Positions 40,371 through 54,867 of a DNA stretch of 55,945 nt are shown here, piece by piece (position 1 is the first letter of the stretch; each line of letters begins with the position of its first letter). Both the position numbers and the translations under genes were made by a program. The DNA is from a virus (taxonomy: Duplodnaviria; Caudoviricetes). The notes under the pieces are model-generated. The model did not search any database, had not been told where the DNA came from, and saw only the letters and a list, made by a program, of their open reading frames with translations. The stretch lies in the IMG/VR virus record IMGVR_UViG_3300044491_002553, positions 1-55,945 of that record, one strand, 5' to 3'.

Positions 40371-41476
40371 TACCTTTTGCTCACAAACATGGTTACTATC
40401 AACTAGAAGACAAAATTACATACAGCAAACTGGAAGCATTAGAATGGCAAAAACTAACTGGCAAATGGCCAGAATGGAACTTCAATCGAGAAGTGTTTGA
40501 ATGCTATGATTGGACTGTAATGCCTGACTTTGATCTGTCAGGACATTACATGATGAGAGCAAAACAGATCAGAGAAAAGTATGATTACTGTGTGCTTTTT
40601 TACAGTGGAGGCAGTGACAGTCATAACATGCTGAATGCATGGATAAAACAAGATTTAAAAATAGATGAGATTGCAAGTTTTTGGAACTTGGAAGGCACAA
40701 AAGATCCACAGAGTTTTATGTGTGCAGAAATACAAAATGTAGTATTACCTGATATAGATACACTAAAAGCAAAAGGCATAGAGTTTAAGTTTAGACTGAT
40801 AGACATCTGCCAAATGACTGTGGATTATATTGCAAAACACAAGTTTGATTATGGATATTATAGTAATCACAGCATAAGTCCAAATAATGTAATCAAAGGA
40901 ACATTTAGAGAAAGTATAGACGATTACAAAAAATTAATAGACAGTGGCAAAACTGTGTGTTTTGTGTGGGGCAGTGAAAAACCACAAGTACATGTTGATG
41001 AAAACGGAAGATGGTATTTTCAATTTATGGATGTGATAGATAATTGTATAAGTCCATATGTGCAAATGAACCAACACAATGGTTGGTTTGATGAATTATT
41101 TTACTGGACCCCTGATATGCCACAGATGATTATAAAACAGGCACATGTGATAAAACAGTTTTGTGAATTATCTGATGATAGCAGTTACTTTCAAAAAGAA
41201 TACAGTCCATATGGATACAGCAAAAAACTCAACATGTATGTCAGCCATGATGGTGTAAAAAGAATAATTTACCCATGGTGGGATACAAATATATTTTGCA
41301 ATGGCAAAGGTGCTACAAATTATCTAACATTTAGTCCTAGAGATAGTTGGATTTTGCAAGATAGTAAAAGCATGATCTCAAGTATTGTAAAAAATTTACC
41401 CACATACTGGACAATGGAAAATCCAAAAAGCAGTAGCATAAAAGCACACGTACAAAGGCACTATCTATGCAACTAG
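40367..41476 (+). CDS. PP-loop (adenine nucleotide alpha-hydrolase superfamily) protein
   Basis: VLFYSGGSDS (SGGxDS) motif; substrate unknown. Confidence 0.7.
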   Translation: MIPFAHKHGYYQLEDKITYSKLEALEWQKLTGKWPEWNFNREVFECYDWTVMPDFDLSGHYMMRAKQIREKYDYCVLFYSGGSDSHNMLNAWIKQDLKIDEIASFWNLEGTKDPQSFMCAEIQNVVLPDIDTLKAKGIEFKFRLIDICQMTVDYIAKHKFDYGYYSNHSISPNNVIKGTFRESIDDYKKLIDSGKTVCFVWGSEKPQVHVDENGRWYFQFMDVIDNCISPYVQMNQHNGWFDELFYWTPDMPQMIIKQAHVIKQFCELSDDSSYFQKEYSPYGYSKKLNMYVSHDGVKRIIYPWWDTNIFCNGKGATNYLTFSPRDSWILQDSKSMISSIVKNLPTYWTMENPKSSSIKAHVQRHYLCN

Positions 41477-42486
41477 CACTTGATCATTGGCACATAGAAC
41501 CTAGCAGTATCTGTACTTTAGCATGTCCAAGATGTCCAAGAGCAGAAGTGCCAGAAACACTGTTAAACAGACAACTGGATTTACAGTTTTTTGTAAATCA
41601 AATAGGTGCTGATATGATCAAAAAGATAAAAAGAATTACTTTTTGTGGCAACGACGGAGACCCAATATATTGTAAACAATTTTTAGAAATATGTGACTGG
41701 ATAAAAACTGTAAATCCAAACATGCAACTTTTGATAGTTACCAATGGCAGTTACAAAAAATCATCTTGGTGGCAAAAACTTGCTGAAATACTCAACACCA
41801 ATGATGAAATAAATTGGAGCATAGATGGTTGGGACCAAAAAAGTAATGAAATGTATAGACAAAGATGTGACTTTGAAAGTATAATAAATGGTATTGAAGT
41901 TTTTAGCAATCACAACCACACAACTTATAAAACTTGGGCCACTATAGCATTTAAATTCAATCAAAATAATCTAGATGACATAGAAAAACTAGCAAAAACA
42001 CATGGATTTGATTGCTGGCAACTTACTAAAAGCACAAAGTTTGGCAATGTATATCCAACATATGGCGATGATGATCCTCTGCAACCAGTTGATGATCTGA
42101 TTGCAAAAGGACATAGATTTGAAAGAGAACAACACTACATTACATCCAAAGCAAGACCTGGCATCAAACAAATTTTTCAACAAAGAACCAAAAAATTGAG
42201 AAACAGCAACGAATACCCAGCCATATGCTACATAGGAAACAAAGGAGTATTTCTAAATGCTATGGGAGAATTTTATCCATGTTGCTGGACTGCTAACAGA
42301 TATGAACATAACAAACAATGGATTGAACTAGGTAAATCTCGGTTCAATTTATATAATTACACTATAGAACAAATTATCCAAGATGAATTTTGGAACAATG
42401 AATTTTTAAAATTTGACAGTTTTGAATGCAAAACCAAATGCACAAAACACGCATTACAGAGTGATGATCATGCTGTCAACTGGTAA
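41467..42486 (+). CDS. Radical SAM protein
   Basis: CTLACPRC, FCGNDGD, VTNG, SIDG; C-terminal C...YPCC...C..KC. Paralog of 39477..40370. Confidence 0.9.
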   Translation: MQLALDHWHIEPSSICTLACPRCPRAEVPETLLNRQLDLQFFVNQIGADMIKKIKRITFCGNDGDPIYCKQFLEICDWIKTVNPNMQLLIVTNGSYKKSSWWQKLAEILNTNDEINWSIDGWDQKSNEMYRQRCDFESIINGIEVFSNHNHTTYKTWATIAFKFNQNNLDDIEKLAKTHGFDCWQLTKSTKFGNVYPTYGDDDPLQPVDDLIAKGHRFEREQHYITSKARPGIKQIFQQRTKKLRNSNEYPAICYIGNKGVFLNAMGEFYPCCWTANRYEHNKQWIELGKSRFNLYNYTIEQIIQDEFWNNEFLKFDSFECKTKCTKHALQSDDHAVNW

Positions 42487-42530
42487 TAACCAGATCTAGG
42501 TAGCAGAGATTAAGCAAAGACTATATACAA

Positions 42531-42938
42531 ATGAATTGGACATACAAAGGCAAAGAAATAACAGAACTACCAGAAGATTGTGTAGGATTTGTTTATATCA
42601 TTACCAATACCACAAACAATAAAAAGTACATAGGCAAAAAACTAGCAAAGTTTAAAACCACAAAACCACCCCTTAAAGGCAGAAAAAACAAAAGACGAGG
42701 CACAAAAGAAAGTGACTGGAGAGAATACTACGGTTCCAGTGACAGTCTAAATGAAGATATAGAAGAAATTGGCAAAGACAAATTCACCAGAGAAATACTG
42801 TTTTATTGCAGAAACAAATCAGAACTATCATACATAGAAGCAAGAGAACAATTCAACCACAAAGTACTAGAATCCGAAGACTATTATAATGGACACATCC
42901 GAGTAAGAGTCCACGGAAAAGGCATACTCAAAACATAA
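42531..42938 (+). CDS. Minimal GIY-YIG family endonuclease (catalytic domain only, 135 aa)
   Basis: GFVYIITN...KYIGKK, YYGSS, conserved E (YIEAREQ) and YYN; no appended DNA-binding repeats. Confidence 0.8.
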   Translation: MNWTYKGKEITELPEDCVGFVYIITNTTNNKKYIGKKLAKFKTTKPPLKGRKNKRRGTKESDWREYYGSSDSLNEDIEEIGKDKFTREILFYCRNKSELSYIEAREQFNHKVLESEDYYNGHIRVRVHGKGILKT

Positions 42939-42945
42939 AAAATTG

Positions 42946-43331
42946 GCTATATAGCACTCTTTATACAATACTACAATATGCGTTGCAGGCTCGCACAATC
43001 CTGACGTTGAGTGCAAGTAAAGGCTAACTACAGGCTAAAAGATTTGGGCACTGGTAGAAACAGAATCCAACCCAAAACTGATACCATGTCGCTGTTATGG
43101 CATGGATTCGGTTCCGTATCTATTCGTGAAGTCAGAAGTAGGGGGTTGACGGGATACCGCCTCCACACAGCAATGTAATCTTCTATAACAGATGAGAGAT
43201 CTTCTCAGCAGATGACTTTCTTTCATGGTTTCACCCGGCAACGGGTGAAGTATGAGTTCAATTTCTAGCAGATAACGTCTTAAAAAATGTGATTGAACGC
43301 AGTGAAAATCACAGATGAACGTAGTTCATCT
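42946..43331 (+). ncRNA. Putative large structured non-coding element of unknown class
   Basis: No ORF of 60 aa or more; GC-enriched relative to its flanks; many stems with G-U pairs on the + strand, two GCAA tetraloops and long-range complementarities (see findings). Confidence 0.65.
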
Positions 43332-43416
43332 CTACTAAATAGATGCTTGTAACAAATGTGATGTTTTAATGAATTGATTTTAGATATTAACTAATTTTTA
43401 CATCAGGAGTTAATGT

Positions 43417-43602
43417 ATGAAAGACACTAATGCTAAAAAATTATGTACGGAATTTAATAAATTCAAAAGAAAAGTACGTGAATTAGGTTTTGAATTTATT
43501 GGAGATCAGGAACTTGAAGCACACTGCACAGAGGACAGTAAAAACAATCCTCGCAGTTATGTCATACTCAGTGCTACCAAAATGGTTGCCCGGTCTTCTT
43601 AG
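43417..43602 (+). CDS. Hypothetical small protein
   Basis: AGGAG 7 nt upstream and CTAAATA at 43335-43341; its 3' end overlaps the convergent gene by 29 bp. Confidence 0.5.
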   Translation: MKDTNAKKLCTEFNKFKRKVRELGFEFIGDQELEAHCTEDSKNNPRSYVILSATKMVARSS

Positions 43603-43812
43603 CAGTTTCCAAGTTATCCTCAATTACTTTTTGAATAATCGACAGGTCTTTACCTGACATTGAATATAGTTCTGTTAGACTGGCGCCCCCTCGCATATAC
43701 CATGATAATCTTGCTATGTTCTCTTTGATCTTTTGATTGCTTTCATCAAATTGTTCTAGCATCTTGACTATCTCTTCATTGGTTAGGCTGAGGAGGCGAA
43801 TACGAAAAAATT
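43574..43812 (-). CDS. gp51-like / frameshift extension of the tail assembly chaperone
   Basis: The frame is open from the slippery site (FRIRLLSLTNEEIVK-MLEQFDES...WYMRGG...PFW); no clear Shine-Dalgarno before the ATG at 43762. Confidence 0.7.
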
Positions 43813-44670
43813 TGATTGATCAAAAGTAAAAGGTGTTGTGTACTGATGCTGGCATTCAGGACAATTAGCAGGAACACTTTTGTTTGGTATTTGCTTGATT
43901 GCAGTTTCTACATGTGTTTTCAACTGCTGATACAGATTTCTGTCTGCATTTTCCACAAACTCCAGTATGTGTGCTTCATCTGAAATAGAAGCACCACCCG
44001 GAACAACAACACGTTCAATTGCACCGGCCATGCTTCTCACGGTGTATCTGGTCATGATTGCAAATATCTCATTGAATCTGTTCTGCTTTTCCTGTTCACT
44101 CATTGTGCTGTCATTCACAGTCTGCACCAATCTCTGCTGTTCAAATGCTTCTAGATTTGCATCATTCATACTGCGATAGTCATTTGGTTTGATGAATATT
44201 TCTAGTTCTTTGTATCTAAATGGTGCATCAAATAGCGAAACATCTACTTTTTTATCTAACCATTGTCTTAGGTCTATCTCATAGTTGTTTGATTCTTCAC
44301 ACTTAGGACAAGTGCTTTGATATTCCATCATTTCTCCGTAACTGGCAATTCTAATAGCAATGAGTATTGCATCAACATCAACAGTTGGTATATGCCATGC
44401 GTTTTTGATTGCAGGTATACAACTCTGAATGACATCAACAACACCTTGACCATTCATCAGTGCATCAGGAGTGTTCAGCAACAGTTCATCTTTGGTGCTT
44501 AGACTGTACACAGGCAATTCACCATTGATTGGCATCTGTAGTACACCAGGTGGATAATACTTGCCTTCACTGGGAAGTCTCATGTATATCTGTGGTTGTC
44601 TCATATATTGTTGCAGTGGATTGGGCATAGCCTGATTTTCCACATTTGGTGTGTTTGTCGTTTTGTCCAC
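43783..44670 (-). CDS. Baseplate hub / tail assembly chaperone, gp26-like
   Basis: LPSEG..Y, KDELLL, D.DAILIAIRIASYGE, two CxxC motifs and an NFF near the C-terminus; GGAG before the GTG start. Confidence 0.8.
   Translation of the reverse strand: MDKTTNTPNVENQAMPNPLQQYMRQPQIYMRLPSEGKYYPPGVLQMPINGELPVYSLSTKDELLLNTPDALMNGQGVVDVIQSCIPAIKNAWHIPTVDVDAILIAIRIASYGEMMEYQSTCPKCEESNNYEIDLRQWLDKKVDVSLFDAPFRYKELEIFIKPNDYRSMNDANLEAFEQQRLVQTVNDSTMSEQEKQNRFNEIFAIMTRYTVRSMAGAIERVVVPGGASISDEAHILEFVENADRNLYQQLKTHVETAIKQIPNKSVPANCPECQHQYTTPFTFDQSNFFVFASSA
43804..43813 (-). promoter_or_regulatory. Programmed -1 frameshift slippery site (A AAT TTT TTC)
   Basis: Two overlapping in-phase X XXY YYZ heptamers; the -1 frame joins the downstream ORF. 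Confidence 0.75.
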
Positions 44671-53729: not shown

Positions 53730-54356
53730 TTAATACCAACCATTTGCATAATCTTCTAGCATAATTTGTTCAATACGCAAACATTGTAGATCATTAGGAC
53801 CAACTCTTATTGTATTATCTTTACGATGATGAATGGTACCTGTCGGCACATCTAAAAGTTCAGCAATTTTATGTACTTCTTTGTAATAAAAAATATGAGT
53901 ATAGATGTTACGATCAGAGCCTAATCTAGCAGTATTTGATTCACAATGATCTCTTACATTCATACTATTTTTGTGATAATATTCATAATTTTTTAAAAAT
54001 TCGTCCAGTGTTTTTTCACCTATCCACAGTTGGTCTTGTGCACCAGTAGGACTAAACATTGTATGGTGGTATCCGCTTACAAATTTATCTACAGGATCAC
54101 GCCAAACTGCTACACGCACATCACATTCTGCAAGTTCTTTTTCATACTCTTGAAAATAATTTTTCTTGATGTAAACCCCTGGAACATTCTGCTCAAATGT
54201 TTTATATGCTTGCACATCATGCACATCTGCATTCCAAAGTACATGGGCCACATAACTTAGTATGCTGGTACTTGCACATTTTTGATTGCGTACTATTCCC
54301 CATGTTTTGTTTTTGTATTGAAATTTTAAAAGTGACATCGATAAATACTTATGCAT
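53730..54356 (-). CDS. Sulfotransferase family 2-like protein (true start may be the Met at 54338)
   Basis: NQKCASTS (5'-PSB-like) and VWRDPVDKFVSGY (3'-PB-like) motifs; C-terminal ED. Confidence 0.7.
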   Translation of the reverse strand: MHKYLSMSLLKFQYKNKTWGIVRNQKCASTSILSYVAHVLWNADVHDVQAYKTFEQNVPGVYIKKNYFQEYEKELAECDVRVAVWRDPVDKFVSGYHHTMFSPTGAQDQLWIGEKTLDEFLKNYEYYHKNSMNVRDHCESNTARLGSDRNIYTHIFYYKEVHKIAELLDVPTGTIHHRKDNTIRVGPNDLQCLRIEQIMLEDYANGWY

Positions 54357-54432
54357 ATAAAATTATGCTTATGGGGAACACCAACCTCGTAGTGAGTGGA
54401 ACTCACATCGGACTTCTGAAAGGAGAAAACAA
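54341..54432 (+). promoter_or_regulatory. Late promoter plus a structured 5' leader
   Basis: ATAAATA at 54341 followed by three or four hairpins; the last one sequesters AGGAG. Confidence 0.55.
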
Positions 54433-54867
54433 ATGGGAAGACCAATTAAATCAGCCGAAACAGTAGGCGGAACATCAAAAGTAGCGGCTGCTAACACAGT
54501 ATTACCAATTGGCTCAAGTGGCCTTAGTGGTAATCAGATGATTATGCAGGCATTTGTAACAAGTGGAAGTGCTAATGCTACCACAAACATCATCCAAAAA
54601 GGTAATAAGAAGTTTCGTGTTACTACTTCAGACGGCACAGAAACTTGTGTATTGACATCAGTTACAAGTGGTTCACTAGCGGCAGGTCAGTGTCAGATCA
54701 CTGGTACAGACAGTGCAGGTGGTACTTATTTTGCAAGTCAAATCACAGGACGTCATTTTGTAGTAGGTGCATTAGGCACAGGCTCACAATTTGCAGTTGG
54801 TGATAAAGCATTACTTGTGGCATCAGGCCCAGTAGAAAACGTAAGTGTTTCCGTACCAAACGGTTAA
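54433..54867 (+). CDS. Small probable virion protein
   Basis: Gly/Ser/Thr/Ala-rich beta-type protein; strong RBS and a late promoter; near the capsid gene. Confidence 0.55.
   Translation: MGRPIKSAETVGGTSKVAAANTVLPIGSSGLSGNQMIMQAFVTSGSANATTNIIQKGNKKFRVTTSDGTETCVLTSVTSGSLAAGQCQITGTDSAGGTYFASQITGRHFVVGALGTGSQFAVGDKALLVASGPVENVSVSVPNG

Follow-up and report, generated by a model that had tools for sequence, protein, structure and literature searches.

Does the non-coding stretch behind a small GIY-YIG nuclease gene of a T4-like phage encode a structured RNA, and is this RNA a partner of the nuclease? The question is raised by a locus of the IMG/VR virus record IMGVR_UViG_3300044491_002553, a 55,945-bp fragment of an uncultured virus with T4-like gene content and an estimated completeness of 16%, which was analyzed at its full length and is called the window below. 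The original prediction, made from the sequence, had described a minimal GIY-YIG nuclease immediately followed by a highly structured non-coding element, and had proposed that the RNA may guide, scaffold or be processed by the enzyme. The two features in question are the following (aa, amino acids).

42531-42938, + strand: SegE-type stand-alone GIY-YIG nuclease gene, 135 aa (Pfam PF19835, phrog_447)
42939-43335, + strand: the element stretch

The absence of coding capacity was borne out by the list of open reading frames (ORFs) and by the GC profile. No ORF of at least 60 aa overlaps positions 42939-43416, the longest ones encoding 55 aa on the + strand and 48 aa and 46 aa on the - strand, and the GC fraction is 0.41-0.455 over 42900-43299 versus 0.30-0.36 in the flanking genes. 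Every pairing that had been proposed for the stretch is present in the sequence where it was placed. The folding energy is modestly unusual on both strands (z = -2.75 on the + strand and -3.74 on the - strand, with 1 of 100 shuffles as good on each); the stretch therefore folds mildly better than shuffled controls, as had been expected of a structured RNA, but this signal is not strand-specific and is little proof alone. The main evidence comes from the comparison of relatives.

Relatives were collected from viral contigs in two ways. The protein-first search gave 599 candidate stretches, among which 551 were confirmed nuclease relatives, and the best 80 of these were kept; the RNA-first search, by two invariant blocks, gave 119 stretches, 69 of them with the RNA (68 distinct). 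In a profile search, sequence homologous to the non-coding stretch of the window was found directly downstream, on the same strand, in many nuclease relatives. Fifty non-redundant relatives were aligned (alignment A1) and compared with 500 shuffles. The proposed structure of 84 pairs is 77.4% paired in A1 versus 62.5 ± 0.4% after shuffling, a value reached by none of the 500; 631 cells are changed on both sides, versus 235 in the shuffles, and the covariation score is 0.384, versus 0.144 for the shuffled alignments and 0.07-0.11 when the 3' partners were slid by 1-3 columns. Mutual information alone recovers the same helices and the pseudoknot PK1. These results are in agreement with the expectation of a conserved and covarying structure downstream of the homologues. 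Many conserved pairs are G-U pairs that would be A-C on the opposite strand (for instance U-G in 46 of 49 rows at columns 127/140 and G-U in 50 of 50 rows at columns 188/207). The + strand is therefore the one from which the RNA is read, and the only one that the G-U pairs had been said to fit. The stretch encodes a genuine, conserved, structured non-coding RNA of the + strand.

This RNA is about 320 nucleotides (nt) long from helix H1 to helix H11, and about 395 nt from the stop codon of the nuclease gene. Its parts are listed below.

42939-43019, + strand: 5' leader with the palindrome GCTATATAGC (42949-58) and the hairpin GCACTC 42954-59/GAGTGC 43009-14
43022-43036, + strand: H1, small hairpin with a conserved CUAAC-type loop; 86.7% paired, 4 of 4 pairs changed on both sides
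43044-43075, + strand: H2, UUGGG/CCCAA helix around the conserved loop GCUCUGNGAAAAAG..CAAC; 85.6% paired
43078-43111, + strand: H3, long hairpin; 9 of 11 pairs changed on both sides
43092-98 with 43185-91, + strand: PK2, tentative, H3 loop with a downstream segment; mutual information at 43095/189 and 43096/188
43116-43121 with 43152-43157 (H6 loop), + strand: PK1, firm pseudoknot; 97.6% paired
43134-43184, + strand: three-way junction H5/H6/H7; covariation in H5 and H7, GUAGGGGG and CCGCCUCC being invariant columns
43134-38 with 43180-84, + strand: H5 (AGAAG/CTTCT); 4 of 5 pairs changed on both sides
43141-45 with 43160-64, + strand: H6, GGGGG with CCUCC; invariant, 99.6% paired
43166-77, + strand: H7, hairpin with a GCAA loop; 3 of 4 pairs changed on both sides
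43190-43206, + strand: R0, AGAUGA-type motif and small hairpin (43194-98 with 43202-06); hairpin 65.7% paired
43207-43215, + strand: first copy of a repeated word, AGCAGAUGA; in relatives in the loop of a small hairpin
43223-43255, + strand: H9, strong hairpin with a GCAA loop between the words, then conserved UAUGA; upper stem 89.8% paired
43267-43275, + strand: second copy of the word, AGCAGAUAA, 60 nt after the first
43289-43312, + strand: H10, stem that encloses a conserved GA-rich internal loop and a small capped helix, in relatives of the UGAGCGNNAGCGAAA type
43313-43331, + strand: H11, terminal hairpin; 7 of 7 pairs changed on both sides

The comparison with relatives sorted the pairings that had been read from the single sequence. 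Double-sided changes support TTTGGG/CCCAAA (H2, 4 of 5 pairs, with 43045/74 and 43046/73 as top mutual-information pairs), the hairpin 43084-91/43098-105 in the region of H3, the AGAAG/CTTCT junction stem (H5) and the ACA-GCAA-TGT hairpin (H7). GGGGG/CCTCC (H6) is paired in nearly all relatives, and its invariance is neither support nor refutation by covariation. The GNRA hairpin at 43223-55 (H9) holds in its upper part, 6 of 11 pairs being changed on both sides. The TGAGA/TCTCA pairing is present in the sequence but weak in relatives (65.7% paired). The CGG-GATA-CCG hairpin had to be given up: it shows no covariation, and its GATA loop pairs instead with 43117-20 in PK1, a pseudoknot with 5 of 6 pairs changed on both sides and up to 6 pair types per position. 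GAAGTCA/TGACTTT (43128-34/43213-19) is not conserved, with 46% of cells paired across relatives, and a GAATCCA/TGGATTC pairing was rejected at 24%. The GCACTC/GAGTGC hairpin (42954-43014) is specific to this genome, and the 5' leader differs in relatives.

Other parts of the model are less firm. Support for PK2 is partial (43-76% paired in A1). In relatives, a tentative helix joins R0 with AAUCU before the second word (43259-66); it is 66.4% paired, mostly with conserved letters, and one of its pairs is AU in 16 rows and GC in 14. In the outer stem of H10, 6 of 6 pairs are changed on both sides; the inner two pairs of H10 are out of register in A1 (4.1% paired) and were identified by eye. In the leader, the perfect palindrome GCTATATAGC stands 11 nt past the nuclease stop codon; of 89 distinct loci, 42 have AGGC[AT] at most 30 nt past this stop, and 10 have ATAGC[AT] at most 45 nt past it. 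The palindrome and these post-stop motifs may serve the RNA as promoter, operator or processing signal.

What distinguishes this RNA is the repeated word. In the 3' core of all relatives, a single word of 7-10 nt occurs as two direct copies with H9 between them, and the word varies from one relative to another (AGAUGAU, AGAUAAU, GGAUGAU, GAAUAAU, ACAUGAUG, ACAUGAAGUU and GCAUGAUG were met). Its two copies change together. In 44 of 50 rows, a sequence has the same 7-mer in both places, and agreement between the copies at the three variable columns reaches 96-100% of rows. When 25 disjoint nearest-neighbour pairs were contrasted, 12 were unchanged, 10 had both copies changed alike and 3 had copies changed unequally, 2 of these 3 contrasts being alignment-register problems. 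When direct copies change in concert, the usual reason is that a single nucleic-acid partner reads the two of them. In relatives, the first word is carried by a hairpin whose closing stem, read by eye, is 68% paired.

Several additional readings of the words were tried and dropped. Their spacing, mostly 49-62 nt in relatives and up to 67, is not a multiple of 3 (29, 38 and 24 cases with residues 0, 1 and 2), so that the twin words are not coding and a small ORF or a ribosome hop between them was rejected. A stop-codon-like U-R-A core fits most word types, fails in L153 and L137, and was abandoned as a rule. A third copy was also sought ahead of the nuclease gene, where the window contains a similar sequence, AGCAGAGAU (about 42507-15), and relatives have none at a consistent place. 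UAUCUG past H11, considered as a partner of the word, wobble-pairs with some variants, is absent from most relatives and shows no covariation.

The reading that we prefer, at a probability of roughly 0.4, is that of an independent, compactly folded, trans-acting non-coding RNA whose two words are read by one nucleic-acid sequence elsewhere. The RNA would be made as the last part of a rightward early recombination/replication operon (gp47, gp46, ..., nuclease, RNA) that runs head-on into leftward baseplate genes, and it would end at or near H11. Its 5' half would fold around the three-way junction locked by the pseudoknot, and its 3' core would display the two copies of the purine-rich word on either flank of the rigid H9, the one in a small hairpin loop or close to it, the other single-stranded. 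We infer that both copies would be read in trans by the same sequence, in a phage or host RNA or DNA, and that the RNA may act as a two-site base-pairing adaptor or decoy.

A number of observations weigh against this reading. No consistent 9-mer complementary to the word (at most 1 mismatch, G-U allowed) was found at -600 to +400 nt in the 50 relatives, and Watson-Crick covariation with the word columns was detected in a single nearby column, for position 2 of the word; by mutual information, the word columns have their best partners in each other, and position 2 in that column too. The word is not enriched in the 56-kb window, where 4 matches were found versus 1.2 expected (6 of 100 shuffles as high): the two words, one further sense-strand copy, and a complementary copy at 24773-81 with no meaningful gene context. 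The contigs from RNA libraries described below attest presence only, are silent on ends, strand and level, and may stem from DNA carry-over; the one over 43234-43509 runs through H11 into the next ORF, and H11 has no U-tract on the + strand, where its tail is CUACUAAAUAG. No cultured phage with the RNA was found when four family variants (the window RNA and the L097, L013 and L079 types) were compared by BLASTN with 50,697 GenBank phage records, a search without covariance model that leaves distant copies possible. Finally, a nuclease gene stands upstream of the RNA in all 63 assessable RNA-first loci, and a functional tie to "a nuclease" is possible.

Both the missing complementary partner and the copying of every change to the other word would be explained if the words read each other, through parallel like-with-like pairs (A-A, G-G, U-U, C-C) or in a three-strand arrangement with an identical parallel strand. 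The words share the same 5'-to-3' orientation and have the long rigid linker H9 between them, and could be arranged in this way. To our knowledge, such parallel like-with-like pairing is a tertiary motif not described in natural RNAs, which would show itself here as an identity covariation, and we hold this explanation to be very unlikely. A second, equally bold option would be a bivalent guide clamping two copies of one target.

The words may also be taken for cleavage sites, cut either by the RNA itself, acting as a ribozyme, or by a sequence-specific endoribonuclease (such as a type III toxin or RNase E), so that a hairpin unit of roughly 55 nt would be released as the active product, for example an antitoxin-like decoy. 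Identical sites indeed bracket a stable hairpin at a fairly constant distance (49-62 nt, up to 67), the compact fold with its pseudoknot resembles that of a ribozyme, and the word fits R-N-A-U, which the cleavage preference of RNase E resembles. However, no self-cleaving ribozyme family was matched in Rfam at E<=10, and a protein site would let the positions that are not read drift independently, which was not seen; no joint or end of an RNA contig falls at the words, though contigs cannot show ends. Such a processing cassette appears quite unlikely.

With the words, four direct YAGAU-type motifs are found, at 43190, 43210, 43270 and 43313. They are compatible with a replication-origin transcript like ColE1 RNA II or the T4 oriF/oriG transcripts, in which a persistent R-loop would prime DNA synthesis, the AGAUGA-type repeats being iteron-like and the AT-rich tract behind H11 (GC 0.255 at 43300-43499) serving as an unwinding element. 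The likeness to these systems lies in a folded transcript by replication/recombination genes, in repeated motifs and in the AT-rich tract downstream; the position beside recombination genes and a gp26-like hub gene also fits, T4 oriF lying near genes 25, 26 and 51. However, the outer two of the four motifs do not change together with the words, the AT-rich stretch behind H11 is not conserved among relatives, covariation and strand-specific G-U pairs argue for a fold at the RNA level, and the window differs from the known origins in offering no sign of an R-loop or of initiation, nor any interpretable skew signal in a fragment of 16% completeness. We regard an origin transcript as rather improbable, at the level of the processing cassette.

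Concerning its distribution, the RNA appears as a modular family. Among the GIY-YIG loci of the protein-first search with at least 600 nt downstream, at least the 3' core was recognized behind 47 of 62 with a profile of the 50 non-redundant sequences. When 11 of the 15 misses were re-inspected, 5 proved to hold a longer RNA variant, 2 yet another variant, and 4 were without RNA. In contigs of prokaryote genomes, 3 of 41 motif matches were real, all on contigs that also carry the GIY-YIG gene. Two of these (L217 and L224; NZ_JBBAKG010000003.1 and NZ_JBBAKG010000001.1, of 148 kb and 183 kb) belong to one Haliscomenobacter metagenome-assembled genome (MAG), and the third (L220; PBLX01000043.1) is a 23-kb contig of a Legionellales MAG with the GIY-YIG gene and the RNA; all three are probably genomes of T4-like phages binned with bacteria. 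As far as seen, the family is confined to uncultured aquatic T4-like phages.

The 3' core is common to the relatives and the 5' domain is swapped, at least three different 5' domains being met. The types distinguished are the following.

Window type
Longer type (for example L013, L040)
Further type (L047, L080)
Polynucleobacter-1 type

The last one is named after an Rfam family (RF01718, a model of 141 positions) that matched 5 of 29 related loci scanned, over their first roughly 140 nt, with 99.7 bits in L079, 94.6 bits each in L004, L002 and L003, and 38.7 bits in L141 (gathering score 37). In these 5 loci, the motif comes straight after the GIY-YIG stop codon, and a 3' core of the window type follows, with the PK1-type loop, the words and H9-H11. 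The window, in contrast, has another 5' domain (H1-H3) and gives no match to the model even at E<=10; the shared 3' core lies outside the Rfam model, and the window RNA is related to Polynucleobacter-1 through this core only. In a table row of PMC2864571 (Weinberg et al. 2010), Polynucleobacter-1 is entered under "Burkholderiales, fresh water/estuary", and it resembles the present RNA in being an orphan structured RNA from freshwater/estuary sequences. The orphan Rfam motif is only one of the 5' modules that are exchanged within a larger RNA family, whose 3' core is common.

Past the RNA, a conserved GGUAUCUGGCCAAUCUCUAAAC-type motif, which includes the UAUCUG considered above, was noticed 20-40 nt behind H11 in L090, L093, L139, L142, L160, L166, L177, L217 and L224 (about 8 of 50 A1 rows, plus L217 and L224), and another subgroup has CAGGAUCNCGUCC there instead (13 of 94 loci).

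Is the nuclease, then, the partner of the RNA? The enzyme itself is an ordinary one. Its residues 3-123 match positions 1-123 of the 123 of the PF19835 profile (SegE_GIY-YIG; E = 7.1e-38, 130 bits versus a cut-off of 25), and it matches phrog_447 (E = 3.4e-41), which comprises stand-alone proteins of roughly 140 aa. The description as a "minimal" GIY-YIG domain with a basic insert is not upheld, since the full-profile match makes the basic stretch a part of the standard domain of this SegE-type family. No sequence relative was found among solved structures at E<=1; in cultured phages, 794 records match the protein, the best being those of Methylophilales phage Melnitz with 69.7% identity. Like the Seg-type free-standing GIY-YIG homing endonucleases of T4-like phages, the gene has a SegE-type domain and is met in many genomic contexts, as expected of a mobile free-standing gene; these varied contexts are a hint of possible mobility in the sense of a homing endonuclease.

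A role of the RNA as guide, scaffold or substrate of the GIY-YIG protein, as omega RNA is for IscB and TnpB, may be suggested by their arrangement: among the 63 assessable RNA-first loci (5 others had too little upstream sequence for assessment), 55 carry a GIY-YIG gene upstream on the same strand, directly adjacent in 50, and the 3' core was seen behind most GIY-YIG genes of the protein-first search. However, 5 of the 55 have another ORF inserted between gene and RNA, and in the 8 remaining loci a PD-(D/E)XK nuclease (PF24608, E = 1e-23 to 1e-28; phrog_244, annotated as Holliday junction resolvase) replaces the GIY-YIG protein. Its genes encode about 170-180 aa and are placed as follows.

L119, 6043-6585, - strand: PD-(D/E)XK endonuclease gene
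L162, 771-1283, + strand: PD-(D/E)XK endonuclease gene
L110, 9348-9854, + strand: PD-(D/E)XK endonuclease gene
L120, L137, L160, L088 and L175: further PD-(D/E)XK endonuclease genes

This exchange suggests a non-orthologous replacement of one nuclease by another at the RNA locus. Conversely, members of the GIY-YIG family are met without the RNA. In all 3 cultured phages inspected, the homologue stands in another neighbourhood with no room for the RNA behind it (148 nt to the next annotated gene in Melnitz, 0 in P-SSM2 and 87 in S-SRM01), and in the 4 RNA-less loci among the 11 re-inspected metagenomic ones, the gene lies in another context and the next gene follows at once or almost so. The strict linkage of gene and RNA is contradicted by this separate assortment. 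A hypervariable guide-like segment was likewise absent from alignments of 50 and 76 relatives, in which the only fast-changing conserved piece is the twin word. Together with the complete and ordinary PF19835 domain, these results leave the proposed guiding or scaffolding of the nuclease unsupported, and we consider it highly improbable. Two unrelated nuclease folds occur upstream, and the GIY-YIG family is often met without the RNA; we therefore regard the nuclease as a regular neighbour of the RNA, be it a free-standing mobile gene or a resolvase-type enzyme of the recombination module, and not as an RNA-guided one.

The comparison with the IscB/TnpB omega RNAs (HEARO, OMEGA) can be drawn in the same terms. 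In both cases, a structured RNA of several hundred nt lies beside a small nuclease gene of mobile type; here, in contrast, the nuclease has a GIY-YIG or PD-(D/E)XK fold, no variable guide end and no transposon ends are present, and gene and RNA assort separately. IscB and TnpB have RuvC/HNH folds. The Rfam scans of the window gave no HEARO match.

Whether the RNA is transcribed was approached through sequencing runs. Parts of the stretch were present in 20 of the 24 runs listed, 6 of these 20 being recorded as RNA; four RNA runs from four studies were compared. Run X16 gave a contig over 42982-43169 with 0 differences, run X15, from another study, contigs over 42831-43046, across the stop codon, and over 43234-43509, across H11, and runs X18 and X19 contigs over the nuclease gene only. 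Three "joints" in RNA contigs (one contig each, 85% likeness) and the uncovered parts were taken as contigs of relatives and not as findings. Co-transcription of the RNA with the nuclease gene, which had been proposed, is plausible because the contig 42831-43046 crosses the stop codon and no sigma-70-like promoter was predicted on the + strand over 42300-43020. Downstream, H11 is probably the 3' end or the terminator of the RNA; in the consensus scan it is terminator-like on the - strand only, where GUGAUUUUCA follows, and it may act in both directions, also ending leftward transcripts that come from the hub-gene side.

These properties of H11 bear on a cis-acting explanation, according to which the element is a 3'-end module that would protect the early transcript from 3' exonucleases and/or insulate the converging early (+) and late (-) units, with H11 as a two-way terminator and the words as sites for an RNA-binding or processing protein. 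The element always lies at the end of a + strand operon and faces - strand genes, H11 scores as a terminator on the - strand, and the contig that joins the nuclease 3' end to the RNA 5' part, with no + strand promoter of its own predicted for the RNA, would fit such a module. However, a stabiliser or terminator needs far less than about 300 nt in which junction and loop nucleotides are invariant, a pseudoknot covaries and the 5' domains can be swapped, and protein sites would not require the words to change together. We judge a cis-acting module of this kind unlikely.

Among catalogued RNAs, no counterpart of the element was found. Rfam 15, searched over the whole window at gathering threshold, gave nothing at the locus and only freshwater-2 at 54353-54435; over 42400-43500 at E<=10, three chance-level matches were returned, the best with 19.7 bits versus a gathering score of 50, and ARAGORN found 0 tRNA or tmRNA genes in the window. 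With no Rfam family, tRNA or tmRNA match at the locus, the RNA is an unclassified large phage non-coding RNA, which is one of the identities originally considered. It is not a group I or II intron either: no such match was obtained at E<=10 and the RNA stands behind a complete nuclease gene. Unlike the GIY-YIG-carrying group I introns, it interrupts no gene, being placed between the complete nuclease gene and converging or unrelated ORFs.

GOLLD and ROOL, presented in PMC12286853 as large orphan "ornate" RNAs, often carried by phages and of unknown biochemical function, are comparable in being large, highly structured and phage-associated. The present RNA differs from them in showing no sequence or structure match, in its smaller size, in its host range (aquatic T4-like phages) and in its twin words. 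No description of it was found in the literature searched; the supplementary candidate tables of PMC10690425, which puts the candidate structured RNAs in viral contigs at over ten thousand, may list it.

The genes around the nuclease and the RNA are given below.

41467-42486: radical SAM/SPASM gene, confirmed by ORF and Pfam/PHROG search
43783-44670, - strand: gp26-type baseplate hub gene (PF12322, phrog_150)
From 44741, + strand: long ORF

In this arrangement, gp47 and gp46 are placed upstream of the nuclease gene, and the RNA is the end of a rightward block that meets leftward baseplate genes. In the window, the interval from gp46 to the nuclease gene is taken up by the radical SAM gene and further enzyme genes. 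In related loci, this interval holds a conserved Lys/Arg-rich ORF of 69-91 aa (for example L077:2783-2992 and L064:2352-2597) for which no Pfam or PHROG match was found; it occurs in 81 related loci, is missing from the window and is therefore not an obligate partner of the RNA. Elsewhere in the window, the match to freshwater-2 (RF02980) at 54353-54435 on the + strand is full-length, with 62.5 bits versus a gathering score of 49.9; it ends at AAGGAGAAAACAAAUG, taking in the ribosome-binding site and the start codon of a small gene, and explains the structured 5' leader seen there.

The locus thus reveals a widespread RNA gene of abundant uncultured aquatic T4-like phages, large, pseudoknotted and not fully catalogued, and it corrects the appealing but unsupported view that guide RNAs have been acquired by GIY-YIG nucleases. 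Its direct word copies carry a rare evolutionary signal, having mutated together at least 10 independent times in 25 contrasts, and the identification of what reads the word would reveal a new mechanism of phage RNA, or possibly a new RNA structural motif.

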